Shown piece after piece: positions 808 through 24,773 of a stretch of DNA of 64,000 nt (position 1 is its first letter; every line of letters begins with the position of its first letter). The notes beneath the pieces were generated by a model. The model saw only the letters and a list, made by a program, of their open reading frames with translations, had not been told where the DNA came from and ran no database searches. The translations under genes and the position numbers were made by a program. Source of the stretch: Eubacteriales bacterium (GTDB lineage Bacteria; Bacillota; Desulfotomaculia; Desulfotomaculales; Nap2-2B). Location: positions 5,528 through 69,527 of the forward strand of contig JBAZGB010000004.1 in the NCBI GenBank assembly GCA_041653135.1. The letters are read 5' to 3'.

Positions 808-884
808 AAAACTTGCCCGGGGAATATACAACGCTATCTGCTAATTATTCCGGTAAGGCAAAAAAACAAAGAAGGAGAATATCA

Positions 885-2591: not shown

Positions 2592-2739
2592 ATTTTCATG
2601 AGATAAAGAAAGCAATAATCCTGAAATAGTTAGTTAACGAGGGAAACAGACAGATTAAGAAAAAGAAGGTATAACCGGTACGGAGCCGTGCCGGGAAACC
2701 CTTGTGAATCAAGCAAAGGAAGAAAGGAGAACAAACACG

Positions 2740-7138: not shown

Positions 7139-7705
7139 ATGAAATTGAAAGGCATCAAAATATTAGGAGTGTTGTTAATTGTTGCGTTAGTTGTTTGCAT
7201 GACCTGCGCAACCGCTTTTGCATCAACTTCCGTGAGTATTTATCTAAACAACAATGCTACGCCTCTGGCGACGTATACAACAACACAATTACAAAATAAT
7301 TTTACTAATTATGTAAAAACTTACTCGAGTTATAATTGCAGCGGAGGTACCTATAAGTATTACGATGCTGAGGGCCCGCTTTTGGAAGACGTGGCAACCG
7401 CTGCTTTAAGTGGAAGCGGGACATCTTTTAGCCAAATCAATCATATCCGGTTCTATGCGACTGCCGACGGTTATGATACCGGGCAAATCAGCAAAAGCGC
7501 CGTGATGAATGGTTACTATTTTGCGAACCCCAGTTCACCGGGAGTAACGGTAGCGCCCGTAATCGCCAGGCTGTATGGAAATAGGGGCGGGGCCCGGAGT
7601 TCTACCAATTGCCTTAGGAATTTTTATGGCCAGGCAAGCGCTGGCGAGGATACCATGTCAAAATGGGTTAAAAACCTTGACAAAATTTATTTGTACACAA
7701 GTTAA
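7139..7705 (+). CDS. Small secreted protein carrying the sulfite-oxidase/YedY-like module shared with downstream surface proteins
   Basis: AAAAGGAGGAG RBS lies upstream. The signal peptide is MKLKGIKILGVLLIVALVVCMTCATAFAS. The module pattern is ...ATYTTTQLQN...YDAEGPLLEDVATAAL...IRFYATADGY. Confidence 0.65.
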   Translation: MKLKGIKILGVLLIVALVVCMTCATAFASTSVSIYLNNNATPLATYTTTQLQNNFTNYVKTYSSYNCSGGTYKYYDAEGPLLEDVATAALSGSGTSFSQINHIRFYATADGYDTGQISKSAVMNGYYFANPSSPGVTVAPVIARLYGNRGGARSSTNCLRNFYGQASAGEDTMSKWVKNLDKIYLYTS

Positions 7706-7909
7706 TCGTATATTGGTGGGATAACCGACTATAAAACAAGGATAATTGAATAAACTGCAAGCTGTTGCGGCTCGCAATTATGACAAGTGAATAAAAGCAA
7801 GGATCAAAGTGCTTTTCAGGTAAGATATCACATATTTCTATCCATTCGTTAATAATTACTCTGCTATAGGTCCGTATCTTGAAGTTGTGTTGAGTTAACC
7901 GTTATAAAT

Positions 7910-7960
7910 GCTAAAACCATCTGTGGCTGATAACGCAGATGGTTTTAGCAGGTAATTTTT
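7910..7960 (+). terminator. Putative rho-independent terminator after the 885-7705 gene set
   Basis: A perfect 14-bp stem (GCTAAAACCATCTG / CAGATGGTTTTAGC) with a 12-nt loop is followed by AGGTAATTTTT. Confidence 0.45.
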
Positions 7961-8226
7961 AAACCATAGGTGACAAACAGTCATATAGACAGGCAGAAGG
8001 AAGGCAGAAAGCACAAGAAAGAGAAACATAATCATTTATGTCGGGGATAAAAGAGCCGTGGTACATATGATGGCATCACCGGCAGATATAAAGAGCGTTG
8101 CGGCATATATATAAATGTAAATGGATCAAGCGCAGACTCTGGATGTATCTAAAGCGGAGATGAGCAAAGAGGGGTCAAACACTAGGGAGTATGCTAATTA
8201 TGCTTTACAGGAAGGGGGAGGTGTTT

Positions 8227-10053
8227 TTGCCAAAATTAAAAAGCAATATGCTGCGTACCCTGCTTCAGGCAGTGTTTGCAATCGGTTTGTTGTTGTTAAT
8301 CCATAACTTTGCGCAGCCGGTCAGTGCGGCGCAGGATGCCGGCAGTCCGGCGTTGTCTGCGGGCGGGCTGCAAAAAGCCCCCGCCCTGGCAGCGGATACG
8401 TCGCAGAATGTGGTTAGAAAGCCGGTGGAACTGACCTTCGCAGACGACGCGGCCTGGAGGGGGGCAATCAGCGGGGTAAGCGTTGACGGTGCGGCATTGG
8501 ACGCCGGGAAATATGCAATAGACGCCGGCAAAATAACCATTGATAAAACTGTCTTCAAGGTGTCCGGGGAATATTCCGTCTCAGTCAGTGCCGGCGGCTA
8601 TGCGGACGCTCTTGTGACGCAGAAGATCGGCCTTCTATGTATCACAGGAAACGGTGTGCGGCAGGAAGTTGTCTTTACACTGGCCGAACTGGAAGCAATG
8701 GATCAGGAAAGAACGGTGTTTTCGGCGACAAACGACTTTCCCTATGATTTATTTTTGGCTGTGGAAGGTGTTCCGCTGCGGAGCTTGCTGGAGCGGGCCG
8801 GAATGAAGCCGGAAGCACGGATGATTACATTTACAGGTACCGACGGGTATAAGGCTGAATTTACTGTGAATGAATTGCTGCAGACAAAACGTTATCTATT
8901 TCCCGCGAAAACGGAGGCAGAGCCGGTGATCGCCCTGAAACGGGTGGAAAGATCGTCTGACTTCAGCAGGATGAATGAGCAGGATACGCCGGTATTGTGT
9001 ATAGGCCAGCGGGCGCAAACCGAGCAGACACTTTTGAGCTTTGTCAGGATCCTGCAAGACATTACCGTAACAACGGATCCGCCTGGGCAATGGGCCGGGC
9101 CGGAGGCAAAAATCATTGATCCTGAAACCGGGCAAAAAGCTGCCACCACGGGCGGCATGGTAAAGCTCGGCTCGGAAGTCATCCTGGAAGGCGATCCGAA
9201 AACAAAAATTTATTATACAACTGACGGCAGTACGCCGGATCTTGACAGCAAGATTTACAATGCCCACGGTTGCGGACCGCTGGCAGGGCAGCATGGACAA
9301 ATTTTAGTTCAGGCTGATACTACTGTCAAAGCCAAAGCTGTTTGGCCGGGCAAGCTGGACAGTGAAACGGCCGCTTTTATATTTATGGTGGCTAATCAAC
9401 CGGCAACCGGCGGCCCGCCGGAAATGCCAGCTGGTGAATCAATCCAGAATAAAGAACCGGTATCAGGAAGCGGTCCTGTTTTTACTGATATCGGGAACTG
9501 CTGGGCTCGCGAGGATATAGAAACGTTAGCGCTCAGAGGGCTGGTTAAAGGGAGAAGCGGTAATTGCTATGAACCGGGCGGTGAAGTCACCCGGGCAGAA
9601 TTTGCGGCACTGATGGTAAGAGCCCTCGGTTTGCAGGAAAAAGTTTTAGGAGAAGGGCAGTTCGATGACGTTGCCGTTTCGGACTGGTATGCGGGTAGTG
9701 CAACCGCTGCGGCGGCGCAAGGCATCATTGCCGGTTTTGACGGGCGGCTGTTTAAACCGGACAATAGCATAACCCGTGAGGAAATGGCGGTTATGATTAT
9801 CCGTGCGGCGCGCATTGCCGGAAAAGAAGAAAATTTATCCGCTGGTGAACAAGAACAGCAGTTGTCTCAGTTCCGGGATCGGCAAATGATTTCATCCTGG
9901 GCAATGAAAGAAGCGGCAACAGCAGTGCAGGCTGGGATTATCAAGGGAACAACGGGACAGGAATTTGCCCCGCAAACTGTTCTTGACCGGGCTCAGAGCG
10001 CGGCGATCCTGAAACGGTTTCTGACTTATATCAATACCGCCGCCGCTCAGTAA
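8227..10053 (+). CDS. SLH-anchored surface protein: DUF1533/HID-like domain + YedY-like module + chitobiase-C-like Ig domain + 3 SLH
   Basis: Track ORF 8191..10053. TTG 8227 is preferred because GGGGGAGG lies 5 nt upstream and it gives the signal PKLKSNMLRTLLQAVFAIGLLLLIHNFAQPVSA. Domain evidence is ELTFADDAAWRGAISGVSVDG, FTLAELEAMD...VEGVPLRSLLERAG, KIYYTTDGSTPD, and the SLH repeats FTDIGNCWAREDIETLA, FDDVAVSDWYAGSA and FRDRQMISSWAMKEA. Confidence 0.8.
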   Translation: MPKLKSNMLRTLLQAVFAIGLLLLIHNFAQPVSAAQDAGSPALSAGGLQKAPALAADTSQNVVRKPVELTFADDAAWRGAISGVSVDGAALDAGKYAIDAGKITIDKTVFKVSGEYSVSVSAGGYADALVTQKIGLLCITGNGVRQEVVFTLAELEAMDQERTVFSATNDFPYDLFLAVEGVPLRSLLERAGMKPEARMITFTGTDGYKAEFTVNELLQTKRYLFPAKTEAEPVIALKRVERSSDFSRMNEQDTPVLCIGQRAQTEQTLLSFVRILQDITVTTDPPGQWAGPEAKIIDPETGQKAATTGGMVKLGSEVILEGDPKTKIYYTTDGSTPDLDSKIYNAHGCGPLAGQHGQILVQADTTVKAKAVWPGKLDSETAAFIFMVANQPATGGPPEMPAGESIQNKEPVSGSGPVFTDIGNCWAREDIETLALRGLVKGRSGNCYEPGGEVTRAEFAALMVRALGLQEKVLGEGQFDDVAVSDWYAGSATAAAAQGIIAGFDGRLFKPDNSITREEMAVMIIRAARIAGKEENLSAGEQEQQLSQFRDRQMISSWAMKEAATAVQAGIIKGTTGQEFAPQTVLDRAQSAAILKRFLTYINTAAAQ

Positions 10054-10092
10054 AAAAGAATGATGATAAATATTTATGCAAGGAGTATGGAG

Positions 10093-11667
10093 ATGAGGAA
10101 AATCAAGGGTTTTAGGCTTAAAAAACTGTTGGCGGCTGTAATTGGGTTAAGTATGATTTGCGGGCTGCTGAACATGGCTGCGCCGCAGTGGGCAGGCGCT
10201 GCTGAGCCGGTGGCGCTGACAGTTACAGGCGACGGGGTTGAAAAAACGGTGCAATTCACTCTGGCCGAATTGCAGGCGCTGCCGCAAAAAACCTATACCT
10301 ATTCCGGATACAATCACTGGCCTTCTTTACAGATATTTAAAGATATGAAAGGGCCGATGCTAAAGACGCTTTTGGACGCTGCGGGGTTGAAGGACAACGC
10401 CGCCATGATCAGGTGCAAATTATCCGTGGATGTATATAGCGAGTTTACCAAGGAACAGTTGCTGGACGAAAAGCGGTACTATTTCCCCGATGGTGAAGAT
10501 GAGGATAATCTGGGGAAATGGCCGCCCACCCGCAGTGAAAGAGGGAAATCGCCGGTGGAAACGATGCTTGCCCTGAACGAGTCCAATGGAAAACTGATTT
10601 ATGGCCAGAGGGCGCTGAATGAGCCGACCTGCTGCAAGAATCAGATGCTCGGAGGGCTTTGCGAGGGGGGGACAATTGAAGTACTGACAGAATCCCTGGC
10701 GCATTGGGAGGCGCCTTCCGCCAATCCTGCGCCCGGCACGATCGCCCCGGGCACGGAAGTAACCCTGCAGCACGGGGACGGGACGCCCTATCACGCCATT
10801 GTGTATTATACACTGGACGGGAGCGATCCTACTTATGGCTCAAACATATTTAATATCAGCTATCCCCACTTTCAGCAGCAATTGAACAAGCCTGTACCAA
10901 TTAATAAAAATATGACGATTAAAACCAAAACAATAGGCATGGGCAAGCTGGACAGCGAAGTGGCGACTTATCAATATAATACAGGAGTTCCAACTCAACC
11001 GGATGAGGTTAATGAAAATACTGCAGGCAATGCGGAAAATACAACTAAGCCGGAAAATACAGGTGTGACGGAGGAGGCTCCTGCAGCAGGGAATACTGAA
11101 CAGGCCAGGAATTTTACTGACCTGGAAGGTCATTGGGCCAAAGACGACATTTATTCATTAGCAGAGAAGGGTATTATCGGCGGGATGACAGCCACGGAAT
11201 TCAAGCCGGAAGAAAAAATAACCCGCGCCCAATTTGCAAAATTGCTAATCAAGGCTTTAAATATTGAAGTTAAGAAGGATGCGGTTCTTTCGTTTTCGGA
11301 TGTGCCGGCTGGCGCGTGGTATCACGATTGCGTAGCGGCGGCAGTCAGCGCAGGATTAATCACCGGTTACAGCGACAGTATTTTTGCTCCCGATAACGAC
11401 ATTACCAGGGAACAAATGGCAGTAATCTTATCGCGTGCTTTGACAATGAAATTGCCGGCGATGGAAGTTGGCGACAGTACCGGGCAGGCTATTGACAAGT
11501 TTACGGACAAAGGGGATATATCATCCTGGGCAAGGGAGGGAATAGCCCTGGCAGTAAGCAGCGGAATAGTGAGCGGGGTAAGCGCGGACACTTTTGCCCC
11601 AAAGGCATTTGTCACGCGTGCCCAGGCGGCGGTCATGATTTCGCGGCTGTATAACAAATTAAACTAA
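10093..11667 (+). CDS. SLH-anchored surface protein: YedY-like module + chitobiase-C-like Ig domain + 3 SLH
   Basis: Track ORF 10060..11667. ATG 10093 lies 7 nt after AAGGAG. The signal is MRKIKGFRLKKLLAAVIGLSMICGLLNMAAPQWAGA. Domain evidence is VQFTLAELQALPQKTYTYSGYNHWP...MKGPMLKTLLDAAG, IVYYTLDGSDPTYGS, and the SLH repeat FTDLEGHWAKDDIYSLAEKG and following repeats. Confidence 0.8.
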   Translation: MRKIKGFRLKKLLAAVIGLSMICGLLNMAAPQWAGAAEPVALTVTGDGVEKTVQFTLAELQALPQKTYTYSGYNHWPSLQIFKDMKGPMLKTLLDAAGLKDNAAMIRCKLSVDVYSEFTKEQLLDEKRYYFPDGEDEDNLGKWPPTRSERGKSPVETMLALNESNGKLIYGQRALNEPTCCKNQMLGGLCEGGTIEVLTESLAHWEAPSANPAPGTIAPGTEVTLQHGDGTPYHAIVYYTLDGSDPTYGSNIFNISYPHFQQQLNKPVPINKNMTIKTKTIGMGKLDSEVATYQYNTGVPTQPDEVNENTAGNAENTTKPENTGVTEEAPAAGNTEQARNFTDLEGHWAKDDIYSLAEKGIIGGMTATEFKPEEKITRAQFAKLLIKALNIEVKKDAVLSFSDVPAGAWYHDCVAAAVSAGLITGYSDSIFAPDNDITREQMAVILSRALTMKLPAMEVGDSTGQAIDKFTDKGDISSWAREGIALAVSSGIVSGVSADTFAPKAFVTRAQAAVMISRLYNKLN

Positions 11668-11728
11668 TTGAACAACATCAATATGCTGCAAAAGCAGCGC
11701 CATCAGATGATGAAACGAAAGAAAGGAT

Positions 11729-12568
11729 GTGTTGAAAATAAATGAGTTTAATGAAAACGACCTGATTACAGTAAAACCGGTTGGAATCGTCAGATCTGGC
11801 TTGCAGGAGCTGAACCAGGTACCGGTAGGAGGAGGAAATGCCGTAATCGAAATATATCCGGAATACAAGCGCGGATTGCTGCGTATTGAGGAAAATTCTC
11901 ATCTCTGGCTTCAATTGTGGTTTCACAAGGCAATCCGCACTCTTCTGAGCACTGTTCCGGGGAAGGTTAATCCCAACCTTCCTGAATATGGAGTTTTTTC
12001 TTTGCGAGCATTTAGCAGGCCAAATCCTATTGCTTTGACATTGGTCCGTCTGGAGAGAGTGGAAGACAATCTTCTTATTGTTAGTGGTTTGGATGCCATA
12101 GATGGGACCCCTGTTGTGGACATTAAGCCTTATTATGAGCAGGAGATAGTATTTTCGCCGGTTACCCCGTACATCCGCCCATTAAAAAGAGAAATGCGCC
12201 AGGAAATTTTCATGAAGCAGGCCTTAAACCACCATCAGGAAAAATGTGCCTGGTTTTTATTGGGGGTGCGCATGGCTCTTGTTGCCGATGATTATTTTGG
12301 ACAGCTCAATTCCAATGATTTGAAAGTAAAAGTGAACGGGCCGCTGTGCCTGGCTGATGTTATGCAGGGTTTAAGCAATGCCCGTTTGGCTAATCCCCCG
12401 CGGTTTGAATATGCCAAAACCGGTGAAATAGGGCAAAGTATCTGGGAAAAAGCCGGCAACCGGTTGACCATTACCGCCAGGCGGCTGATTACAGACGATG
12501 AATTTTTACAGATCGATGATAATCAGTTCTTAACAATAGAGTTTAAGAATCGTTTTGAAGTATGTTAA
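11729..12568 (+). CDS. TrmO/TsaA-like (YaeB, UPF0066) N-terminal domain fused to an FmdE/FwdE-like C-terminal domain
   Basis: GTG start with AAAGAAAGGA upstream. The N-terminal part is VGIVRSG...IEIYPEYKRGLLRIEENSHLWLQLWFHKA...GVFSLRAFSRPNPIALTLVRLERVEDNLLIVSGLDAIDGTPVVDIKPY. The C-terminal part is ALNHHQEKCAWFLLGVRMAL and CLADVMQGLSNARLAN, which resemble the FmdE motifs HGHxCPG..G.R and C..D.iQ..tGcT. Confidence 0.75.
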   Translation: MLKINEFNENDLITVKPVGIVRSGLQELNQVPVGGGNAVIEIYPEYKRGLLRIEENSHLWLQLWFHKAIRTLLSTVPGKVNPNLPEYGVFSLRAFSRPNPIALTLVRLERVEDNLLIVSGLDAIDGTPVVDIKPYYEQEIVFSPVTPYIRPLKREMRQEIFMKQALNHHQEKCAWFLLGVRMALVADDYFGQLNSNDLKVKVNGPLCLADVMQGLSNARLANPPRFEYAKTGEIGQSIWEKAGNRLTITARRLITDDEFLQIDDNQFLTIEFKNRFEVC

Positions 12569-12598
12569 AAACAATAATGCAATTTTGGAGGTGACGAG

Positions 12599-13162
12599 AT
12601 GGGCGAAACCAGTGTTGATGCCAAAAAAGCTTCCAAGAAGTGGCTGGTCTGGGGGGTGATCGCGCTGGTTTTGATTATTGCTGTTTCCTGGTATCTTAGC
12701 CTTGATAAAGGCGGGTTAAAGGAAGGGACAGTAGTAATTAAAGAAGGCGATGTCATTTTAGGCAGCTTTACGGTTGCAGACCTGAAAAAACTGCCGGTTG
12801 CAGAGAAAAAAATGACAATTACAAGAAATTGCTCCAGTAGTTGCAGCAGCAAAAACAGCGGCGGCGGCAATCAAAGCAAACATGATTACACCGGAACGCC
12901 TCTTTCGGCAGTGCTAAACAGCATTAATCCGGATCTGACGCAAAAATACAAAAAAGTTATTACCAGGGGCATCGACTATTACAGTCAGGTTATGGAAATG
13001 TCTGAAGTGCAGCAACCGGACAATATATACATTGCCTACAGTGATTATTACAAGCCGTTAAAAACTAAAGCAGGCGAAGAGGGAAGCCTTTCGCTCATTG
13101 TATGCAGTGACAAGTCCGGGCAGCGTTTCACCAATTGGCTGGTGAGTCTGGAATTGCAGTAA
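12599..13162 (+). CDS. N-terminally membrane-anchored small protein with the YedY-like module
   Basis: GGAGGTG RBS lies upstream. The TM segment is WLVWGVIALVLIIAVSWYL. The module is GSFTVADLKKLPVAEKKMTIT...YTGTPLSAVLNSIN...ITRGIDYY...LSLIVCSD. Confidence 0.65.
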   Translation: MGETSVDAKKASKKWLVWGVIALVLIIAVSWYLSLDKGGLKEGTVVIKEGDVILGSFTVADLKKLPVAEKKMTITRNCSSSCSSKNSGGGNQSKHDYTGTPLSAVLNSINPDLTQKYKKVITRGIDYYSQVMEMSEVQQPDNIYIAYSDYYKPLKTKAGEEGSLSLIVCSDKSGQRFTNWLVSLELQ

Positions 13163-13191
13163 GAGATTATCTTAAGGAAAGGCGGAAAGCG

Positions 13192-14661
13192 ATGTTAACT
13201 ATTAAAATATCAAGGTTTTACAGACTTCTGGCCGGCATAACGGGGTTATGCGTTATTGCCGCTTTCCTGCTTATGGGTGCGCCTCAAAGAACCGGCGCGG
13301 AAGAACCGGTAGTATTAACGGTTATGGGCGACGGGGTAAAAGAAGAAGTAAAGTTTACCATGGCGGATTTGCAGGCGCTGCCGCAAAAGACTTATACATA
13401 TAGTGGATATAACCACTGGCCTGCTTTAAAAGTGTTCAAGGACATGACCGGGCCTTCTCTGAAAGGTATTTTGGATAAAGCAGGCCTGAAGGATACCGTT
13501 GCCTTGTTCAAGTTCAAACCAAGCGGCGGCAAGTATGTGCATGTTGATTTTACTAAAGAACAGCTTTTGGATGAACCCCGCTATTATTTCCCGGATGGGG
13601 AAGATCCCGGTGATGTGGTGGATTGGCCGCCCCAGCGCAGTGAGAAGGGGAAAGTTCCGGTTGAAACCATCATTGCCCTGAATGATTCACAGGGAAGGGT
13701 ATGCTTTGGACAGCGTGCGCCCAATGAGCCGACCGGCGGCGATTGCGTCATGATTCAGGATATGTGCAGCGGCGGAGTAATAGAAGTGTCTACCGAGCCC
13801 TTGCAGCGATGGGAGCCTCCTTTAGTTTCTCCTTCTCCCGGAAAGGTTGCCGCAGGCACAAAAGTAACGCTGGTGAAACCGGAGACAATACCGGATAATG
13901 TAATGATGTACTATACCCTGGACGGCAGCGATCCTGCTTATGGGAGTTATATTTACAATATCAGCTACCCCAATTTCCAGCCGGCTTTTAACGCGCCTAT
14001 ACCGGTAAATGAAAATTTAACGATTAAAGCCAAAACAATCGGTTTCGGCAAATTGGACAGTGAATTGGTAAGTTTTCAATATACTGTGGAAAGGAAATTT
14101 TTTGACCTGGAAAATCATTGGGCTAAAGATGACATTAATTATTTAGTGGAAAAAGGGATAATTAATGGAATGAGCAATACAGAATTCAAACCGGGGGAAA
14201 AAGTTACCCGTGCCCAATTTGCCAAACTGTTGATTGGGGCATTGAATATAAAAATTGATCAAGGTTCTGAGATTCCCTTTCAAGACGTTCCTGCCGCCGC
14301 ATGGTACCATGATTATATCGCAGCAGCGGTCAAGGCGGGTTTAATCACCGGTTACAGCGACATAATTTATATTCCCGATGAAAATATCAGCAGGGAACAA
14401 ATGGCGGTAATCATTTCACGGGCATTAGAAATGAAATCAAACACAGCAGAAAATAACGGCAATATAGAGGAAATTGTTAACCAGTTTAAAGACAAAGGGG
14501 ATATATCACCCTGGGCAAGGGAGGGAATAGCCCTGGCAGTAAGCAGCGGAATAGTGAGCGGGGTAAGCGCGGACACTTTTGCCCCTAAAGTATCCGCTAA
14601 CCGGGCTGAAGCAGCGGTCATGATTTTGCGGTTATATAAAAAGACTGGTGAGAATTTGTGA
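13192..14661 (+). CDS. SLH-anchored surface protein, paralog of 10093..11667 (YedY-like module + Ig domain + 3 SLH)
   Basis: Track ORF 13135..14661. ATG 13192 follows AAGGAAAGG. The signal is MLTIKISRFYRLLAGITGLCVIAAFLLMGAPQRTGA. The protein is colinear with the 10093 protein throughout (VKFTMADLQALPQKTYTYSGYNHWP..., MMYYTLDGSDPAYGS, FFDLENHWAKDDINYLVEKG). Confidence 0.8.
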   Translation: MLTIKISRFYRLLAGITGLCVIAAFLLMGAPQRTGAEEPVVLTVMGDGVKEEVKFTMADLQALPQKTYTYSGYNHWPALKVFKDMTGPSLKGILDKAGLKDTVALFKFKPSGGKYVHVDFTKEQLLDEPRYYFPDGEDPGDVVDWPPQRSEKGKVPVETIIALNDSQGRVCFGQRAPNEPTGGDCVMIQDMCSGGVIEVSTEPLQRWEPPLVSPSPGKVAAGTKVTLVKPETIPDNVMMYYTLDGSDPAYGSYIYNISYPNFQPAFNAPIPVNENLTIKAKTIGFGKLDSELVSFQYTVERKFFDLENHWAKDDINYLVEKGIINGMSNTEFKPGEKVTRAQFAKLLIGALNIKIDQGSEIPFQDVPAAAWYHDYIAAAVKAGLITGYSDIIYIPDENISREQMAVIISRALEMKSNTAENNGNIEEIVNQFKDKGDISPWAREGIALAVSSGIVSGVSADTFAPKVSANRAEAAVMILRLYKKTGENL

Positions 14662-15224
14662 CTCTCTGGAGAAAGTTTTTAAACAGGTTTACTCCATATG
14701 ACTTTATTATCATCGCTCTGATGTCTGCCATGGGTATTGCCATCAAACCGGTAATTGTGCCACTGTCACATATCCTTACCGGACCACTCCTGATTCCGTC
14801 GGGCGCTTTGACAGGCGGGTGTTTTATGCTGTGGCTGGTCCTGGGGTTCGGCATTACCGGCAAAAGAGGCACGATGTCATTAATTGGCGTTGTTCAGGCC
14901 ATCCTGGTCATGGCCACCGGTTTGCCCGGTTCACAAGGAGTGATGAGTTTACTAAGCTATACCATGCCGGGTATTGTGGCCGATCTGGGACTATTCCTGA
15001 TTGGTCACCGGGTTTGCTGCCTGCCGTGCGCCTTTTTAGCCGGAATGCTGTCAAATATTACCGGAACCATGATGGTTAATTTCGTATATTACCGTTTTCC
15101 TCTAATTCCTTTGATCTTTAGTCTAAGTGTCGCAGCCTTGTCCGGAGGGCTTGGTGGACTGGTTGCCTTTATAATTGCACAGAAGATATGGAAATTCCAA
15201 AAACGTGAAGATGAACATTGTTAG
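14658..15224 (+). CDS. Putative ECF-transporter substrate-capture (S) component, substrate unknown
   Basis: This is a 188-aa polytopic membrane protein with about six hydrophobic segments. Its GTG start overlaps the upstream stop (GTGA at 14658-14661). It lies immediately upstream of the EcfA/A'/T genes, which is the group I ECF layout. Confidence 0.6.
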   Translation: MTLWRKFLNRFTPYDFIIIALMSAMGIAIKPVIVPLSHILTGPLLIPSGALTGGCFMLWLVLGFGITGKRGTMSLIGVVQAILVMATGLPGSQGVMSLLSYTMPGIVADLGLFLIGHRVCCLPCAFLAGMLSNITGTMMVNFVYYRFPLIPLIFSLSVAALSGGLGGLVAFIIAQKIWKFQKREDEHC

Positions 15225-15280
15225 ATTGATCTTTTTAATCATCAGGGAAAATATTTTCAATCAAGGGTGGTAATGTTTTT

Positions 15281-16036
15281 TTGGAGGCTGTGGCGGTTAA
15301 GGGGTTAACTTATAAGTACTGGCCGGGTGGACCTCTGGTATTAAACGGTATAGACTTTAATGTGTCCCCGGGAGAAATAGCAGCGGTGACAGGTTTAAGC
15401 GGCTGTGGTAAGAGCACCCTTTGTTTATGCGTCAGCGGACTGATCAATTATAACAAAGGAGGGGTAATGACCGGGGAATTACTGGTAAATGGCAAGGATG
15501 TCAGATATCTCAAAACAGCCAGCCTGGCGAGGGAAGTTGGCCTGGTTTTTCAAGATCCTGATACGCAGCTTTTTTCGCCTACCGTAGAAGACGAAATCGC
15601 TTTTGCCCCGGAAAACTTATGCCTTCCGCCCGGACAAATCCGGGAGAGGGTGGATTATCTGCTTGATCTGCTGGGAATTGCCGCTTTAGCTGAAGCGAAT
15701 CCCTACAATCTTTCCGGCGGCGAAAAAAGCCTGGTGGCTTTGGCCGCGGTTTTAGCTCTCGATCCACAGGTCCTGGTCATTGATGAAGTCATGTCCCCGC
15801 TTGATCCTGACGGGAAAAAGAGAGTAGCCTCAATTTTGGATAAGCTGCGTGCTGCAGGGAAAAGCATTATTATTGTAGAGCATGATCTGGAAGCGGTTGC
15901 TTTTGCAGACCGGTTGATGGTGTTGAACAATGGGAAATCAGCCCGTTTTGACCGGACGGAAAAGGTCCTGGCAGACTGGGATTTTCTTGCTGCAGCCGGG
16001 TTGATATATGATGATGAAGGCTTAAACAACGGATAA
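15281..16036 (+). CDS. ecfA: ECF transporter ATPase component (EcfA type)
   Basis: Walker A is GLSGCGKST, the ABC signature is LSGGEKS, and Walker B is LVIDEV. Confidence 0.85.
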   Translation: MEAVAVKGLTYKYWPGGPLVLNGIDFNVSPGEIAAVTGLSGCGKSTLCLCVSGLINYNKGGVMTGELLVNGKDVRYLKTASLAREVGLVFQDPDTQLFSPTVEDEIAFAPENLCLPPGQIRERVDYLLDLLGIAALAEANPYNLSGGEKSLVALAAVLALDPQVLVIDEVMSPLDPDGKKRVASILDKLRAAGKSIIIVEHDLEAVAFADRLMVLNNGKSARFDRTEKVLADWDFLAAAGLIYDDEGLNNG

Positions 16037-16049
16037 ACGAGGGCAAACA

Positions 16050-16715
16050 GTGGCGTTTATAGAACTTAAGCAGGTGAGCTTCTTTTATCCCGGGAAAAAG
16101 GAACCGGTACTGAATTCAGTAAGCCATAGTTTTGGCAAGGACGGGATAACGGCTGTTGTTGGACCAAATGGCAGCGGCAAGACCACGCTTACCAAAATAA
16201 TGGTTGGTATTGTACAGCCAAATAGCGGGGAAGTTTTTCTGGATTCGCTTCCTTTAAAGAAATATTCCCTGGCGGAAATAGGACGCCGTATTGGCTATGT
16301 ATTCCAGAACACGAGCCATCAGTTTTTTTGTGCCACTGTAGCGGAAGAGATTGGTTTTGGGCTAAAGCATCTGGGTAAGGAATCGGAAGCGGTTGAAGAA
16401 AAAGTGGAGTTTTACCTGGAATATTTTGAATTAACGGCCTATCGGAACGTTTTTCCCTTGCGTTTGAGTTATGGTGAAAAACAGCGGGTGGCAATCGCTG
16501 CCGTACTTGCCAATAGTCCTGATTATTGTATATTGGATGAACCTACTGTTGGTCTGGATGTTTACCGTAAGAGGTTATTGGAAAACCATTTAAAAAAAAT
16601 TGTCCGGTTGGGCAGCGGGCTATTGATTGTCAGCCATGATTATAATTTTGTTAAAAGAATCGCCGACCGGGTTGTTCGAATGGAGAACGGCCAGGTTCAG
16701 GAAGGTAGCGGGTAG
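16050..16715 (+). CDS. ECF transporter ATPase component (EcfA' type)
   Basis: Walker A is GPNGSGKTT, the signature is LSYGEKQRV, and Walker B is ILDEPT. Confidence 0.85.
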   Translation: MAFIELKQVSFFYPGKKEPVLNSVSHSFGKDGITAVVGPNGSGKTTLTKIMVGIVQPNSGEVFLDSLPLKKYSLAEIGRRIGYVFQNTSHQFFCATVAEEIGFGLKHLGKESEAVEEKVEFYLEYFELTAYRNVFPLRLSYGEKQRVAIAAVLANSPDYCILDEPTVGLDVYRKRLLENHLKKIVRLGSGLLIVSHDYNFVKRIADRVVRMENGQVQEGSG

Positions 16716-16731
16716 AAAGGGTTTACCGTTT

Positions 16732-17463
16732 ATGAAGCTTGATCCCCGGACAAAATTGGTGATCATTATTTGTATTACAACTTTAGCTTTAATTTACAAT
16801 ACTCCCGGGCGGCTGCTTTTGCTTTTTGCCTTAACGATTATCCTGATCTTGTTTTTTAGGATTAATCTTGCCGGTATCTGGAGCAGTTTAAAAAAACTTT
16901 TGCCCTTGCTTTTGACGCTTTTTTTAGTTCAGGTCATTTTTCTGCGGTCCGGTACTGCTCTTGTCAGTGTGGGTTCGGCGCCGCTAATTACCGCCAATGG
17001 CCTTGCGGCAGGGACCAGTGTCATGCTGCGATTGGGAATCGTCTGTTTTGTAGCCGTTTTGTTAACATCTTCAACCAATTCCCGGGATTTTGTTTTAGGG
17101 CTGGCGCAGTGGAAAATTCCCTATGAAATAGCTTTTATGGTTTCGGTGACAATTCGATTTTTACCAGTTCTGCGGGAGGAAATGAGCAATATAATTACAG
17201 CTGTTCAATTAAGAGGAGTTGAGCTCAAGAAGGTGCCCTGGCGAGAAAAAATCAAACTCTACTGCAGCTTATTTTTCCCGCTGGTCTATGGAACAATTCT
17301 CAAGGCCCAACGGCTGTCGCTGGCGATGGAAGCGCGATGTTTCAGGATTTACCCACAGCGCACTTACCTTAGACGATTGAGATTGACCTGCATTGACTAT
17401 GTCTTGATGGTGGTTTCTGTAATTGCTACACTTATATTTATTAACCCCGATATTTGGAGATAA
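16732..17463 (+). CDS. ecfT: ECF transporter transmembrane (T) component, CbiQ family
   Basis: Track ORF 16627..17463 overlaps ecfA', so ATG 16732 (MKLDPRTKLVIIICITT) is preferred. The protein is polytopic, with the coupling-helix-like motifs AVQLRGVEL and AMEARCF. Confidence 0.8.
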   Translation: MKLDPRTKLVIIICITTLALIYNTPGRLLLLFALTIILILFFRINLAGIWSSLKKLLPLLLTLFLVQVIFLRSGTALVSVGSAPLITANGLAAGTSVMLRLGIVCFVAVLLTSSTNSRDFVLGLAQWKIPYEIAFMVSVTIRFLPVLREEMSNIITAVQLRGVELKKVPWREKIKLYCSLFFPLVYGTILKAQRLSLAMEARCFRIYPQRTYLRRLRLTCIDYVLMVVSVIATLIFINPDIWR

Positions 17464-17500
17464 GCAAAGTATTTGTCCAACTGTAAAGGAGAAATGTGAC

Positions 17501-18868
17501 ATGCTGATTTTCGGTTTCCGGCAGGCTATGCTTAGCAAGTTGATCATCGGTCCGGGGTTTTCTGAAGCCGGGTTGGGAATCAAATTAAAATCCCGGAAAT
17601 TTGCATCCTTGATAATAATACTGACATTTTTTCTTGCTCTGCTATGTGTTGGAAATCCGGGTACGGCAAATGCTGTCTGTGGCAGTAATCCGGGAGTGCC
17701 CGCTGATACGCTGACGATTAAAGTTGGTTATTTTGGCGGGCCTTACTATACGAAGAAAATATATACGCTCAATGACTTTGATAAGTTGCCGCAAGTGGAA
17801 CAGACATATACTTTCATTGACAGCATTTCGGCGGTGTGTATCGACAGGGCTAAAGGAGTGAAATTGACCGATTTGATTGAGGATGCAGGCATTGATATCA
17901 ATTCCGTGCAAAAGTTTTATTTTTACTCTACCGATATCAAAAATGGATGGTATCAATGTTTGGATAAGTCTTTCCTGCTGGATACGCCCCGTTACTATTA
18001 CCCGAACCTTCCGTCATATTGGGATTATGAAACAAATACTTCCTTGCCTGAGGCAGTATATGGAGCGGTCCGGGTTGATCCGATTATAGCATACCAGGAT
18101 AACTGGAGAAGGTATGAAGTTGCCCCTGATGACAGTTATTATGATACTTCAACCAGGTTCAGGCTGCTGCTTGGGCAGAAGGACACAACTGATCATGATG
18201 CTCCCCTGTCGGTCAAATGGGTGCATGCGATCGAAATAATGCTGGGTGGCATGCCCCCTGAACAGGTGACCCTCAACCAGAACCTAACTAACTTCAAAGT
18301 CGGCAGTACGTTTCAGTTGAAAGCGGCAGTTGCTCCGGACGAAGCAGCGGAAAAAAGCGTGACGTGGACTTCCAGCGATACCAGTGTGGCTATGGTGGAT
18401 GAAAACGGCCTGGTAACAGTGACCGGCCCGGGCAAGGCCGTTATTACTGTGAGCACTGTCATTGGCAATTTAACGGATACTTGTATAGTAAATGATCCAA
18501 ATCAGAAAGATAACCAGGCTGTTGCGTCTGCGGGCGCTAATCCCCCGGGGAAAGGACCTGCGGGACCGGTATCTGACCGGCAGTATTTGAAAGAAAAGGA
18601 CCTTGCTGATGCCAATCCTGTGACAGCCGGTATCATCCCGGTACAATCAGGCAGCCAACCATGGCGCGTATTCGAGATGTCGGCTGATGCGGTACCCTTG
18701 CAGCAGCAGAAGCAAGGAGGTTTTGATATTTATGTGACATTGGTATTTATTACCTTGTTTCTTGCGGGGGCAGTTAAAAGGCGCAAAGAATATATAAAAG
18801 AAGCGGCAGTGGTTGCCTATCCCTCAAGAAATGATGGCGCCAATAGAATTAATATAAAAAGTCCTTGA
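17501..18868 (+). CDS. Exported protein: YedY-like module + Big_2 Ig-like domain + C-terminal membrane anchor
   Basis: Track ORF 17423..18868. ATG 17501 lies 8 nt after AAAGGAG. The signal ends ...LALLCVGNPGTANA. The module is KKIYTLNDFDKLPQVEQTYTF...AKGVKLTDLIEDAG. The Big_2 domain is FQLKAAVAPDEAAEKSVTWTSSDTSVAMVDENGLVTVTGPGKAVITV. The C-terminal TM is IYVTLVFITLFLAGAV followed by KRRKE. Confidence 0.75.
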   Translation: MLIFGFRQAMLSKLIIGPGFSEAGLGIKLKSRKFASLIIILTFFLALLCVGNPGTANAVCGSNPGVPADTLTIKVGYFGGPYYTKKIYTLNDFDKLPQVEQTYTFIDSISAVCIDRAKGVKLTDLIEDAGIDINSVQKFYFYSTDIKNGWYQCLDKSFLLDTPRYYYPNLPSYWDYETNTSLPEAVYGAVRVDPIIAYQDNWRRYEVAPDDSYYDTSTRFRLLLGQKDTTDHDAPLSVKWVHAIEIMLGGMPPEQVTLNQNLTNFKVGSTFQLKAAVAPDEAAEKSVTWTSSDTSVAMVDENGLVTVTGPGKAVITVSTVIGNLTDTCIVNDPNQKDNQAVASAGANPPGKGPAGPVSDRQYLKEKDLADANPVTAGIIPVQSGSQPWRVFEMSADAVPLQQQKQGGFDIYVTLVFITLFLAGAVKRRKEYIKEAAVVAYPSRNDGANRINIKSP

Positions 18869-18893: not shown

Positions 18894-20732
18894 TTATTTA
18901 GTTGGTTCGCCGAACAGAATCAGGAAGTCATAATAAACGTCGGAAATTTTGTCTGCATTATAGTTAACATTAACTTCTTGCAGTACAATTCTCAGCCTGT
19001 AACCGTTGTTTTCTACATCCAAAGTCATTAACTCTGGGGGAAGGGAACCTTTTGGAGTATTGCTGACTTTGGACAGTGTACTGGCCAAACCGTATAGCCC
19101 GGAACTGACTAATTCGATTCCCTTTTGGTTGCTTACCGATACTTTTGCCTCTTGAGGCGATGTGTGTTTGATAATGAGTTTATATTTATTGTTGCGGACC
19201 TGAAAATCATAAGGTAAATCAGTAGAACCATCCGTTCTTGTATAAGATTGGGCATGAATAAAGATATCATAGCCGCTGATTTCAATCGGTTTTTGCGTAT
19301 CCAGACTGGCTCCAAAGTATCTGTTACTCAAGTCTTCATAGGCTGCATCAAATCCAAAAGTATTCTTCATTTCGTTAATCTTAAAATCAGAAGGCAGCCA
19401 ATTAATATATTTAAGGTAATTGCGTATCTCAAGATAGTCAAGGATTCTGGTAGATTCCAGCCTTATTTTTACAGGTGGGGAAGCTTTGGGAATTATTTTC
19501 CCGTCTTTTGACAATATGCCTTCTGAGATGAGCATATTTTCCAGCCGTGAAATCTGCGAAAAACGGGATACCGTAAATGCATCAATTGGCGGTATCACAG
19601 ACAAAATAGCCAACCCGGCAGCCAGCAAGGCAATAACACCGTTTTTAGCAGCGGGTTTAAAGCTGAATAAAATTCCACAAACCAGTGAAAACATTCCAAA
19701 AAGGATTACGTAATAACGCGATTCGGTGATGCCATAAGCATTTACCCTTATGGCAACTGAAACTAACTGCATAATAACCATAAGGATAAGGGCTTTGGGG
19801 AAAACATGACGGAAAATCAAGGTAAACTTATTTTTTAATTGGTTGGATAAAATAAATGTAATCAGGCCAACGGCTGAGTAAGCCAGTATCATTGGGCCAA
19901 GTTGACCCGCAGGCCATTTAAGGCTTATCAGAATCTTAATAAAATAAGCTATCAGAACAACACTGTAGACTGCAATCAGGGGTATAACTATGTACGATGC
20001 TAAAATTTCCAATAAACGGGGATAAATCGCAGCCTGTGCCGTATATGTATGATCTTCCTCAGATTCGGAATTAAACTTGGGCAGCAGCGACAGGTAGTAC
20101 AAATCGGCAAAAAAGATCCAGATGATGCACATAGTAATAGGATATGCATCCTGGTTTACTTTAAAAAGCAATATGTCAATGGCGGCAATGATGCTTGCGC
20201 AGCCGACAGACAGAACTGCCGCATATAAGGCAGAGGTAAAGGCAGACTTGAAATGGATCAAAGCGACACTATTAAAATCGGCTTTATCCTTAAATGAGGG
20301 CAGCCAAATAAAGGCGCAGAACATAGCAAAGACGGCGACAACGGTGCGGATTTTAACAGCAAAAGTTATGCTTGGAGCAGGCAAGATAATTAAATAATAA
20401 CCCAGGATCAACAGCGCCGATATTAAATAAACAAGCAACCGCATTTTTCTCAAATGCTCAAAGCGCTCACAGCTGAATTGAGCTACTACCCCCAAAAAGG
20501 CCCCTAATAAGAAGGTAAACATAAGTTTTTGCAGAATAAGTTCCGGTTCCTTTCCCAGGGAAATCATATAACAGGCCAGTATTGTGGCGCAACCCAGGCA
20601 GAAGATTGTCAAGGGGAAACGTGCGACAGCATCAAACAGGCCCCATGTAGTTTTTTTTATTGATTCAACAAATCGGTTAATAGAACTCCCTCCTTGGATA
20701 TTAATTTTAAAAAGCATAAGCTGTAGATGCAT
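18894..20732 (-). CDS. Large polytopic membrane protein with a soluble C-terminal domain (possibly DUF4153-like)
   Basis: This is a 612-aa ORF. About 400 aa are hydrophobic segments, followed by a ~200-aa beta-rich tail. It is noticeably AT-rich. The family assignment is from memory only. Confidence 0.65.
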   Translation of the reverse strand: MHLQLMLFKINIQGGSSINRFVESIKKTTWGLFDAVARFPLTIFCLGCATILACYMISLGKEPELILQKLMFTFLLGAFLGVVAQFSCERFEHLRKMRLLVYLISALLILGYYLIILPAPSITFAVKIRTVVAVFAMFCAFIWLPSFKDKADFNSVALIHFKSAFTSALYAAVLSVGCASIIAAIDILLFKVNQDAYPITMCIIWIFFADLYYLSLLPKFNSESEEDHTYTAQAAIYPRLLEILASYIVIPLIAVYSVVLIAYFIKILISLKWPAGQLGPMILAYSAVGLITFILSNQLKNKFTLIFRHVFPKALILMVIMQLVSVAIRVNAYGITESRYYVILFGMFSLVCGILFSFKPAAKNGVIALLAAGLAILSVIPPIDAFTVSRFSQISRLENMLISEGILSKDGKIIPKASPPVKIRLESTRILDYLEIRNYLKYINWLPSDFKINEMKNTFGFDAAYEDLSNRYFGASLDTQKPIEISGYDIFIHAQSYTRTDGSTDLPYDFQVRNNKYKLIIKHTSPQEAKVSVSNQKGIELVSSGLYGLASTLSKVSNTPKGSLPPELMTLDVENNGYRLRIVLQEVNVNYNADKISDVYYDFLILFGEPTK

Positions 20733-20982: not shown

Positions 20983-21171
20983 CTAGTAAACAGATACAGC
21001 TACCCCTTGGTTTAATCTAGGTATTTTCAGAATTGATTTTTTTCGAATATCCCCTTTGAAGAACCTGGTTAACTGACGAAAGTTATGGGCTATAATTTTG
21101 GCGCCTATCACAAGCTTACATTTCACAATCCCGCGAACGTTCAGTTTGCCCTTCTTCATTTTGTGGAACAT
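20983..21171 (-). pseudogene. Probable transposase C-terminal remnant
   Basis: This isolated 62-aa ORF (KKGKLNVRGIVKCKLVIGAKIIAHNFRQLTRF) resembles the conserved C-terminal tail of IS1182/IS5-type DDE transposases. No catalytic region lies upstream. Confidence 0.4.
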
Positions 21172-21776
21172 TTATATAAATTTAGAATGCGAAAAAATTA
21201 AAGAAGTTTTTTCGATTGAAGAGGAATTTCAGAATGGGTGTAGAATATAATACATGTACAATTAAATATTACAATTTTCGAGCCTTGGAACCTACGGTAA
21301 ATACTATGGATCTAAGGCCGGTAGAGTGTAGCTGGAAATGGCTGTGCTTCCCGATGCGGAAAGAAAATTGGTAATTTTTTTTGAGGTATTCGGGCTAAAC
21401 TATTTAAAGTTTAGCTTTTTTTAACCAAATAAAAAGCCAGTTGTCTTTTCGGGCATATGGCTTTTATTAATGTAAGATGTCTTTGCAAAATACGGCACGA
21501 CGGTCTAAATCCTTAATGATAGAGTGGTTTTATTAAAGCTGTTCACGTGTTTTTGCTTTTTAAGTTTACTTCCCTATTTCCATGTGACGAGAGCAGTTTT
21601 TTAATAAGCTGCTCCTTTTTTTAACACACTAGAAAAATTAGACAGGTAAACATAAGAAAAGGGCAGGGGTTTCTTACGGAAACCGCCAACCCTTTCCATT
21701 ACACAAAATTTGATATGTCTCCCGGTTTTTTCAGAATAACATCTATTTCACCATAGTTTTCTGAAATAACTTTTGA

Positions 21777-23057: not shown

Positions 23058-23313
23058 TTTCAGTCCCCCCATATAAATTTTATGGTCTTAACTAACCAAT
23101 ACGTTAACCGGCGCAAAAAACATGGGGGTATACTTAAGCCCAAAAAATACCATATGAGCAGGACTGGTTCATATAGATAAGCTGGGTAAACATCATTTAG
23201 CATTTATGCCATAAATAAAATATGCAATCCCCAAATATAAGAACGGAAATAACGGGTGTTCAAATGACTCAAGAATTTATCCGGGTAAATAGCCATACAA
23301 GGAAAAATACAAA

Positions 23314-24371: not shown

Positions 24372-24400
24372 AGTATATTGCGTAAATTACGTAATATCAA
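24372..24400 (-). promoter_or_regulatory. Sigma-A-type promoter of hicAB with an embedded TACGTA-containing repeat (candidate operator)
   Basis: The minus strand reads TTGATA, then a 17-nt spacer (TTACGTAATTTACGCAA), then TATACT. This lies ~30 nt upstream of the hicA ATG. TACGTA occurs twice. Confidence 0.5.
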
Positions 24401-24773
24401 CATGTTTTTAAAAGTTTTTATTGGAACCGACGGAAGGGAACGCCTCCGCCAAGTCGAACGCTGGCCAGTTTCAATTTTCCTGCCAACAGCAAAGCGCAGA
24501 GCAAATAATTTACTTGCCGGCAAATTAACTAACGTTGGTGAATTTGCTGCAACTCGCGCTTATCATTGGTTATTACATATTTATAGATAGGTTCCTGAAT
24601 TATAGAAGAAGCACAAGCCGAGGAGTAAAGACAATAACGAACATCAGGAGAATTCACCAAAGCAAGAGGGCAGGAATGATCACCATGCTTTAGCAGGTGT
24701 CCATTTTAGGCCTTAATTAATACGGTGAGAAAAATAAAAGCGGCTCAATCCCTTGAGACGCTTGCTTTTTCTT

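Follow-up and report, generated by a model that had tools for sequence, protein, structure and literature searches.

An energy-coupling factor transporter linked to surface-anchored proteins with a predicted sulfite oxidase/PruR-type fold in a Desulfotomaculales bacterium

We analysed a stretch of 64,000 nucleotides (nt) from contig JBAZGB010000004.1 of an uncultured, Desulfotomaculum-like bacterium of the order Eubacteriales (the window, to whose full length all window coordinates refer), and specifically a block of ten genes, numbered g1 to g10 in order, that encodes a transporter of the energy-coupling factor (ECF) type among proteins bound to the cell surface through S-layer homology (SLH) repeats or membrane anchors. 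Five exported products of this block (g1, g2, g4, g5, and g10) carry a module whose modelled structure resembles those of sulfite oxidases (SUOX) and of the secreted pterin binder PruR, and linkage of such modules to the transporter recurs in distant lineages. All ten open reading frames (ORFs) are on the + strand and fill positions 8227-18868, as described in an earlier note made from the sequence alone, with gaps of 64 nt at most (6-39, 61, 30, 29, -4, 56, 13, 16, and 37-64 nt from g1 to g10, given plausible starts and ribosome-binding sites). The negative gap corresponds to the sequence GTGA at 14658-14661, where the stop of g5 overlaps the start of g6, and bears out the translational coupling proposed there between an SLH protein and the S component of the transporter. 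A hairpin scan against shuffled sequence likewise agreed that the block holds no convincing internal terminator: terminator-like stems within 8227-18868 are only 5 bp long and every one falls in coding sequence, and the numbers of terminator-like sites (20 observed versus 17.2 ± 4.6 in shuffles) and promoter-like sites (22 versus 25.1 ± 5.4) are those expected from shuffling. On this layout, the ten-gene block looks like a single operon.

Just upstream of g1, a strong intrinsic-terminator-like hairpin would separate the preceding transcription unit from the ten genes (Table 1). At the other end, the stop of a convergent gene lies 25 nt from that of g10 and thus leaves no space for a separate terminator. 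The 280-nt leader of g1 folds no better than shuffled sequence (z = -0.39), and its alignment with the leaders of other loci gave no match. Between window positions 8000 and 20000, the G+C content declines along the cluster from ~0.52 in the SLH and module genes to ~0.43 in the ECF genes and g10, which may reflect the differing composition of genes for surface and membrane proteins or a mosaic origin.

Table 1. Features of the ten-gene block and its surroundings in the window
Feature	Position (nt)	Strand	Description
SLH-anchored protein, C-terminal part	19-807	+	Cut by window start; 3 SLH repeats, E 3e-35
Purple-acid-phosphatase-like metallophosphoesterase	813-2591	+	Secreted; Pur_ac_phosph_N + Metallophos
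RCC1 giant	2704-7080	+	1458-aa surface protein; RCC1 beta-propeller repeats + 3 cadherin-like domains
G0	7139-7705	+	Sixth module protein; secreted, 188 aa, stand-alone SUOX-like module; precedes the terminator at 7909-7950
Terminator-like hairpin	7909-7950	+	17 pairs, G+C-rich, with T-run; just upstream of g1
g1	8227-10053	+	Signal peptide, Shr-like HID, SUOX/PruR-like module, CHB_HEX_C_1 spacer, 3 SLH; S-layer/wall anchored
g2	10060-11667	+	Signal peptide, SUOX/PruR-like module (NHWP hairpin, CC pair), CHB_HEX_C_1, 3 SLH
g3	11729-12568	+	Cytoplasmic fusion of TrmO_N (S-adenosylmethionine-binding) and FmdE-like metal-binding parts
g4	12599-13162	+	187 aa; N-terminal membrane anchor + SUOX-fold domain; PF00174 33 bits
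g5	13192-14661	+	Signal peptide, SUOX/PruR-like module (invariant H-W, C138, C152), CHB_HEX_C_1, 3 SLH
g6	14658-15224	+	ECF S component, PF09819
g7	15281-16036	+	EcfA-type ATPase; ABC_tran; TIGR04520 204 bits, below equivalog cut-off
g8	16050-16715	+	EcfA'-type ATPase; ABC_tran; TIGR04521 178 bits, below cut-off
g9	16732-17463	+	EcfT (CbiQ family) transmembrane coupling subunit; PF02361 5e-33
g10	17501-18868	+	Signal peptide, SUOX/PruR-like module, Big_2, long Pro/Gln-rich linker, C-terminal membrane anchor
DUF4153 membrane protein	18894-20732	-	612 aa; converges on operon end
Molybdenum/tungsten cofactor (Moco/Wco) riboswitch aptamer	21264-21382	+	Complete; RF01055, 71 bits; 2.4 kb beyond cluster

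Pfam and NCBIfam profile searches confirmed the gene order and the products previously assigned from the sequence. The Shr-like HID domain of g1 was recovered at 2e-26, and in both g2 (whose likely start is at 10093) and g5 the module is followed by CHB_HEX_C_1/Fn3_assoc and three SLH repeats. The ATPases encoded by g7 and g8 are 33% identical and find their best NCBIfam matches in ECF_ATPase_1/2 and cbiO, below the equivalog cut-offs. Signals in the cluster proteins are Sec-type or membrane anchors, with no twin-arginine signal and no CxxCH (c-type haem) motif in any of them. No NEAT domain was matched in these proteins by Pfam; NCBIfam matches to NEAT proteins span the SLH region only, and we rejected them as indications of such a domain.

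The one cytoplasmic protein outside the transporter, g3, joins a TrmO_N domain (5e-28) to an FmdE-like C-terminal half that stands in place of the tRNA-binding C-terminal domain of TrmO. Its FmdE (PF02663) score is 18.3 bits, under the threshold of 22.9; for the family as a whole, the assignment is supported by precomputed PF02663 matches of many orthologues and by the invariant motifs NHHQEKC and CLADVMQ (HH-x3-C...C). The core motifs of the FmdE family are FHGHxC and a Cys/Asp metal site, the PF02663+PF01980 architecture (TrmO_N + FmdE) was noted previously by Axelrod et al., and metal-ion transporter genes are the usual neighbours of FmdE genes (PMC2954224). Public records name g3 TrmO, and it scores above the NCBIfam equivalog cut-off for that family (TIGR00104, 108.8 bits versus 93.25). 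Given the FmdE-like half and the association of the gene with the transporter cluster in 13 of 29 loci (see below), the name, which denotes a tRNA methyltransferase, is probably an over-annotation.

With S, two A, and T components encoded together, the transporter is by gene content a dedicated (group I) ECF system. The S component, g6 (188 aa, ~6 hydrophobic segments, and an AxxxA motif in the first transmembrane helix, TM1), matches PF09819 at 52.1 bits (cut-off, 25.2). Homologues at 60-95% identity were found, and the closest S locus is in a metagenome-assembled genome (MAG), 'Firmicutes bacterium UBA4049' (97% protein identity). A sequence search for related solved structures returned nothing significant. 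The possibility, left open in the earlier note, that g6 belongs to a well-characterized S family does not apply: by its sequence it belongs to PF09819 (YkoE-like) and not to a characterized family, with no NCBIfam equivalog and no thiamine pyrophosphate (TPP) or other riboswitch. That note had also credited the transporter with a molybdenum or tungsten (Mo/W) association, of which we found no documented instance. The distinguishing feature of g6 is the motif H117-x2-C120-C121-x-P-C124 (nt 15006-15029), which is invariant (98-99% of 122 homologues), although the Cloacimonadota homologue (35% identity) lacks it. Such a motif is uncommon among ECF S components. The positive-inside rule predicts that this His/Cys cluster lies at the cytoplasmic end of TM5.

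The modules of g1, g2, g5, and g10 are clear paralogues (hhalign probabilities of 98-100%, as well as blastp), and sharing of one module by five exported products thus stands as first described, although the module is longer (~150-190 aa rather than ~130-150 aa) and g4 is remote by sequence. In hhalign comparisons, g4 reaches probabilities of only 58% (g10 type) and 30% (g1 type), and the gap is bridged by OxM371, a third family that relatives encode, at ~94% to each. The gathering cut-off of PF00174 (Oxidored_molyb), 24 bits, is exceeded by g4 (33 bits) and g1 (25.1 bits); g2 falls below it (16.3 bits), and g5 and g10 have no match. At 91% identity, g4 resembles a protein from 'Desulfotomaculum sp. 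46_80,' and in searches of solved structures with its sequence and its profile the only hit was a marginal one of the profile to PruR.

Structure prediction gave a more consistent picture. An AlphaFold model of g4 built from 31 orthologues (predicted local distance difference test, pLDDT, of 83.5) retrieves in Foldseek the molybdenum cofactor (Moco) domains of sulfite oxidases and dehydrogenases, YedY, and PruR (E ~1e-6), with TM-scores normalized to PruR of 0.64-0.73. For the g5 module, modelled from the five window paralogues only (pLDDT, 78), the top 33 Foldseek matches are all SUOX, YedY, or PruR, the remainder being noise, and the normalized TM-scores are 0.54-0.64. The models point to a genuine small-ligand-binding fold, and together with the hhalign comparisons they place the module of the five exported products and of G0, a sixth module protein encoded upstream of the block, in the SUOX/PruR pterin-binding fold, g4 being a distant, more SUOX-like relative of the four paralogous modules.

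PruR is an experimentally characterized secreted pterin binder with a degenerate SUOX fold, in which a Tyr and a Trp sandwich the pterin, an Asn hydrogen bonds to it, and a P-W pair replaces the Mo-ligating Cys (PMC11194511). The modules resemble PruR (PDB 7kom, 7kos, 7kp2, and 7rkb) as small, secreted, degenerate SUOX folds that lack catalytic partner domains, and the invariant H-W on the short hairpin of the g2 and g5 types, where an aromatic would again take the place of the Mo-ligand Cys, is reminiscent of P-W. Across g4 orthologues, C78 and C82 (NCxxxC; nt 12827-12844), H95, D126, and Y128 are invariant and W180 is nearly so. In a weak profile alignment (E = 1.5, sequence similarity to PruR being marginal), D126 and Y128 fall on the Asn and Tyr with which 7kom contacts pterin, so that an Asp/Asn-x-Tyr pair would occupy the pocket positions. 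To judge from position in a model whose confidence is low at this point, C78/C82 sit at the tip of a long beta-hairpin, where SUOX enzymes hold the Mo-ligating Cys. This Cys is absent from the g1, g2, g5, and g10 types. The g2, g4, and g5 modules contain conserved pairs of Cys, neither Cys nor His is conserved in the g1 type, and g5 has a His where the PruR Tyr is expected. PruR differs in being proteobacterial and signalling to the diguanylate cyclase DcpA (no gene for a DcpA-type GGDEF/EAL membrane protein was present in the window or related loci); here the modules come in several copies, joined to wall anchors and tied to a transporter, and g4 retains Cys in a long SUOX-type hairpin. SUOX molybdoenzymes share the predicted fold of the g4 and g5 modules and differ in being exported with their cofactor by a Tat signal or staying in the cytoplasm, and in having additional catalytic or dimerization domains; Pfam detected no dimerization or haem domain in the module proteins. 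The module profile recovers 1,035 cluster representatives at 50% identity in a global protein library, with up to nine tandem copies per protein, a multiplicity that suits binding better than catalysis.

To establish whether modules recur beside this S component in other Firmicutes, a comparison suggested in the earlier note, we annotated 29 distinct S-encoding loci with window profiles and Pfam (from Desulfofarcimen, Desulfoscipio, Pelotomaculum, Formimonas, Syntrophomonas and other Syntrophomonadaceae, Petroclostridium, Anaerovorax, and one Cloacimonadota MAG). In 25 of these 29, which represent several Firmicutes families and the Cloacimonadota relative, the fetched stretch includes a gene for one or more SUOX-like module proteins. 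The linkage of module and ECF genes is strongly conserved, and the refutation that the earlier note allowed for, no such conservation in related genomes, fails. Of the four loci without a module, two are covered for less than 2 kb upstream. Genes recur in the core order g4-type, g5-type, (g10-type, ExbB, DUF2149), S, A, A', T, (g10-type), and the g4, g5, and g10 types are conserved to the same degree as the S unit. Even in the Cloacimonadota locus (L024), a SUOX-like gene adjoins S. ExbB and DUF2149 genes lie directly upstream of S in 12 of the 29 loci, with a g10-type gene directly before them in relatives; the window and its closest relative have neither. In 13 loci, a TrmO-like gene, whether it carries FmdE or not, is part of the cluster or adjoins it. 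An apparent in-frame g3+g4 fusion in the closest relative (L004, 5273-6595), which would have been Rosetta-stone evidence, was rejected because it stems from a stretch of N in the MAG scaffold; an apparent g9+g10 fusion is found at 10062-11777 of the same MAG.

The surroundings of this core vary, as follows. In six Syntrophomonadaceae loci (L018, L019, L020, L022, L023, and L030), the S-ECF genes are embedded in a flavinylation-type cluster comprising NapH-like Fer4_5, FMN_bind, ApbE, and EetB (PF07456) + NusG_II genes and a second EcfAAT set, ApbE and EetB being separate genes; variants in this family also encode two further SUOX-like proteins, one of a 371-aa type and the other a g4 paralogue that lacks Cys. 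Three loci (L009, L027, and L032, the first assigned by similarity search only) show the order U246 (uncharacterized, ~246 aa), TrmO, a Se/S carrier (PF11823), a cysteine desulfurase of the EF2568/SclA type, S, and ECF A and T, and a tRNA-Sec gene lies ~10 kb from the locus in L027. NTPase_1 is encoded beside the cluster in three loci, adjacent to a class I methyltransferase in two (L028 and L029), and CobW and DUF364 lie downstream in L031. Pfam scans of the downstream flanks of six loci returned unrelated housekeeping genes and no recurring cofactor genes, and the rest of the window contains no Moco, ApbE, NapH, FMN_bind, or ExbB genes.

The conserved cluster also extends upstream of the ten genes, to G0 and three further conserved genes (SLH, phosphatase, and RCC1). 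G0 has no Pfam match and aligns by hhalign with the g1-type module (95%), the g10 type (90%), and the OxM371 family (94%); it has orthologues in four loci (L003, L015, L029, and L031). Phosphoesterase orthologues are found inside the same cluster in eight loci (L001, L003, L008, L010, L012, L028, L029, and L031), the gene for the RCC1 protein adjoins the cluster in at least 12, and SLH proteins flank the orthologous clusters. By this recurrence, the genes at 19-7080 are part of the same conserved supercluster. The purple-acid-phosphatase-like and RCC1/cadherin proteins have in common a C-terminal domain of ~120 aa, which in D. acetoxidans also occurs as a stand-alone protein of 177 aa (L001, 4844-5377).

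Because the linkage is conserved, translation of g5 and g6 is coupled, and the S, g4, g5, and g10 types match in conservation, the ten genes very likely constitute one functional unit, a dedicated ECF transporter with extracytoplasmic SUOX/PruR-fold modules and a cytoplasmic TrmO-FmdE protein, within the larger conserved envelope cluster. As to what this unit does, we tentatively favour, without regarding it as probable, an inward relay in the style of the Isd/Shr systems that carries a thiol-binding metal-pterin ligand, similar to Mo/W cofactor, into an ECF importer. The physical hand-off, the direction of transport, and the identity of the ligand are what we infer here, from gene structure, folds, residues, and linkage. 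Modules would be held at three depths: in the S-layer or wall through SLH repeats (g1, g2, and g5), on a long C-terminal tether (g10), and at the membrane (g4). The outer, PruR-like modules would catch a small ligand in the wall, with g1 possibly docking a donor protein through its HID domain, and would hand it inward to the Cys-bearing g4 module; from there it would pass to the S component, whose invariant His/Cys cluster could take it through the membrane as EcfAA'T hydrolyses ATP, and the HH..C..C site of the FmdE-like part of g3 would accept it in the cytoplasm. The presence of invariant His/Cys outside the cell (g4), in the membrane (S), and in the cytoplasm (g3) suggests hand-off of a thiol-binding species, and the SUOX/PruR fold suggests that it contains a pterin moiety; the most plausible ligand would be the cofactor of molybdenum or tungsten, molybdopterin, or a piece of one of them.

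This relay shares with the Isd/Shr NEAT haem systems a set of wall-anchored proteins with one ligand-binding domain in common, a membrane-proximal member beside an ATP-driven importer, a cytoplasmic handling protein in the cluster, and, in g1, an HID domain of the Shr type. It departs from them in its SUOX/PruR-like rather than NEAT domains, its SLH and membrane-helix anchors instead of sortase attachment, and an ECF transporter in the place of a binding-protein-dependent ABC importer. An import model fits the multiplicity of modules, their layered anchoring, the HID domain, the ExbB/ExbD-like pair of relatives, and the secreted phosphoesterases, which suit scavenging. The surface capture apparatus feeding an ECF importer that was envisaged in the earlier note is thus upheld as far as the conserved linkage and the ligand-binding fold go, but these establish neither import over export nor the ligand.

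The pterin or Mo/W ligand floated in that note finds some support, each item of it weak, in the PruR fold match, the hairpin Cys of g4, what is known of the FmdE family, an orphan Moco riboswitch in the window, and the surroundings of the cluster in D. acetoxidans. There, mobB lies immediately before the cluster, as does a divergent operon (a MoCF_biosynth gene, moeA, and mobA) under a Moco riboswitch (L025, 4990-5134). These Mo-cofactor adjacencies are suggestive but weak and could be due to chance, as they amount to two events in 29 loci when ~0.5 riboswitch co-occurrences are expected by chance.

That frequency also counts among the points that weigh against the proposed relay. No riboswitch was detected upstream of g1, even at a permissive E-value, and none precedes the operon in the 25 related loci scanned, where the only hits were the Moco riboswitch beside the D. 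acetoxidans cluster and the tRNA-Sec. Conservation of the pocket residues is no more than partial in the g5 and g10 types, and free Mo cofactor is very labile. The His/Cys cluster of g6 is predicted on the cytoplasmic side and not in the classical outward-facing pocket, a position compatible with hand-off in either direction. The cytoplasmic partners found in relatives (the SclA-like desulfurase with its Se/S carrier, P-loop NTPases, and CobW) resemble donors in cofactor maturation more than acceptors, and the NapH-like, FMN_bind, ApbE, and EetB genes of the Syntrophomonadaceae imply redox-active extracytosolic proteins and so favour outward delivery.

Outward delivery is a less probable but serious alternative, in which the ECF transporter would send a pterin or Mo/W-pterin cofactor made in the cytoplasm to SUOX-like domains secreted unfolded by the Sec route, the surface proteins being redox-active enzymes or electron carriers. 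There is experimental support for ECF exporters that deliver cofactors to extracytosolic clients encoded beside them: EetB/FmnA exports flavin adenine dinucleotide (FAD) for extracytosolic proteins flavinylated by ApbE (PMC9973259). The present system resembles it as a dedicated ECF transporter co-localized with extracytosolic proteins that would need its cargo, and the two are interleaved in the Syntrophomonadaceae, where S-ECF genes and SUOX-like genes stand among those of the flavinylation type; the S components, however, are of different families (PF09819 versus PF07456), and genes for ApbE, NapH, and FMN_bind are all missing from the window. Export would also account for module proteins that have Sec-type and no Tat signals while g4 retains Cys in the Mo-Cys hairpin, for the maturation-type neighbours (TrmO-FmdE, SclA-like desulfurase with Se/S carrier, NTPase_1 with methyltransferase, and CobW), for the adjacent Moco biosynthesis genes of D. 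acetoxidans, and for the predicted cytoplasmic position of the His/Cys cluster in S. Against it, only one of the five modules has a Cys at the Mo position, and arrays of up to nine modules, phosphoesterases, the HID domain, and the ExbB/ExbD-like pair better suit capture. To our knowledge, moreover, nearly all characterized ECF systems are importers.

Still less likely is an ECF system that simply imports some soft metal or metalloid (Ni, Co, Zn, Se, or thio-molybdate/tungstate), with no pterin involved and the modules serving as accessory metal-binding or structural parts. PF09819 is named for cobalt-type ECF systems, and the T and A components are CbiQ/CbiO-like; the motif H-x2-CC-x-P-C in a membrane helix resembles the intramembrane thiolate sites of metal transporters. 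The conserved Cys pairs of g2, g4, and g5, the CobW and DUF364 genes in L031, the SclA-like lyase and Se/S carrier before S in three loci (with tRNA-Sec near one of them), and the usual adjacency of FmdE genes to metal-ion transporters (PMC2954224) would all be explained. The fold predicted for the module, however, is specifically one that binds pterin or Moco, with the pocket Asp and Tyr invariant in g4, and neither a Cys nor a His is conserved in the g1-type module. Known Ni/Co ECF systems have S units of the CbiM/NikM type with an N-terminal His motif, and g6 lacks this motif.

Capture and import of a tetrapyrrole (haem or a corrinoid), analogous to Shr/Isd or Hmu, is very improbable. It draws on the Shr-like HID domain of g1 and on the ExbB+DUF2149 pair, which belongs to the same Pfam families as HmuU/HmuV of Bacteroidetes haem-uptake operons and lies directly upstream of S in the 12 related loci; in addition, a Cys of the S-like protein BtuM is known to coordinate cobalt, and there are ECF importers of haem. 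Nevertheless, the pair is absent from the window and its closest relative and, where present, occurs in presumably single-membraned bacteria with no TonB-dependent receptor; there is no NEAT domain; no cobalamin riboswitch occurs in the window or the 25 related loci; and the modelled fold is a pterin-binding one rather than one that binds haem or B12.

Equally hard to credit is a chance arrangement of S-layer genes beside an ordinary vitamin importer, such as one for a thiamine precursor: the S component does share a Pfam family and a dedicated A/T module with YkoE, the S component for hydroxymethylpyrimidine (HMP)/thiamine precursors and the founder of PF09819, and SLH proteins are abundant in these genomes, but g6 scores only 52 bits, has the invariant Cys cluster and conserved surface-protein partners, no thiamine genes were found near it in the window by Pfam scan, no TPP riboswitch occurs there or in the 25 related loci, and linkage persists in 25 of 29 loci over distant lineages with conserved order, translational coupling, g4, g5, and g10 types as strongly conserved as S, and a SUOX-like gene still beside S at 35% identity.

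In the usual view, a membrane S unit is all that an ECF transporter needs, and the extra extracytoplasmic components of Ni/Co group I systems (CbiN and NikK/NikL) provide a precedent for accessory non-S components. The present system shares with those the co-encoded S, two A, and T components and the CbiQ/CbiO-like T and A, and differs from them in its PF09819 S component with a unique H-x2-CC-x-P-C motif, its large S-layer-anchored SUOX-fold proteins, the added TrmO-FmdE protein, and, in relatives, the added ExbB/ExbD-like pair. Literature searches returned no publication on this cluster, no paper on Dtox_3484-3490, and none combining ECF, SLH, and molybdopterin, and a survey of flavinylation makes no mention of ECF or molybdopterin (PMC8238504); the pairing of an ECF transporter with SUOX/PruR surface modules does not appear to have been described. 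According to a 2026 review (PMC13259868), a system for pterin transport has yet to be described, and we found no Mo-cofactor transporter in the papers searched; the cluster is therefore a concrete, testable candidate for one.

What recurs is a dedicated ECF transporter together with wall- and membrane-anchored ligand-binding modules (~1,000 sequence clusters at 50% identity, up to nine copies per protein), an ExbB/ExbD-like pair in presumably single-membraned bacteria, and a metal-binding cytoplasmic partner. If these parts work together, they would represent a new architecture for the transit of small molecules across a thick Gram-positive envelope and may explain how Sec-exported SUOX-like domains acquire a cofactor, in syntrophic and sulfate-reducing anaerobes whose energy metabolism depends on W, Mo, and Se enzymes. 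It is improbable, though conceivable in two versions, that the cluster is the first bacterial system for trafficking of Mo/W cofactor or free pterin. As an import relay, S-layer receptors would strip the cofactor from environmental proteins or those of lysed cells by HID docking and pass it through the Cys module and the ECF transporter to an FmdE-like chaperone; in the mirror version, an ECF exporter would load a wall-spanning chain of pterin-binding modules that forms an extracellular redox conduit in syntrophic Firmicutes.

The Moco/Wco riboswitch of the window, with a promoter-like site at 21069-21096 and a terminator at 21392-21417, has no evident client. Downstream of it, the nearest + strand ORF of at least 60 aa outside longer opposite-strand genes is at 24378-24590 (70 aa), and the first long + strand ORF begins at 25200. 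Read-through would proceed antisense into an SLH/fn3 gene (21777-23072, - strand), and the riboswitch may be an orphan remnant or an antisense regulator.

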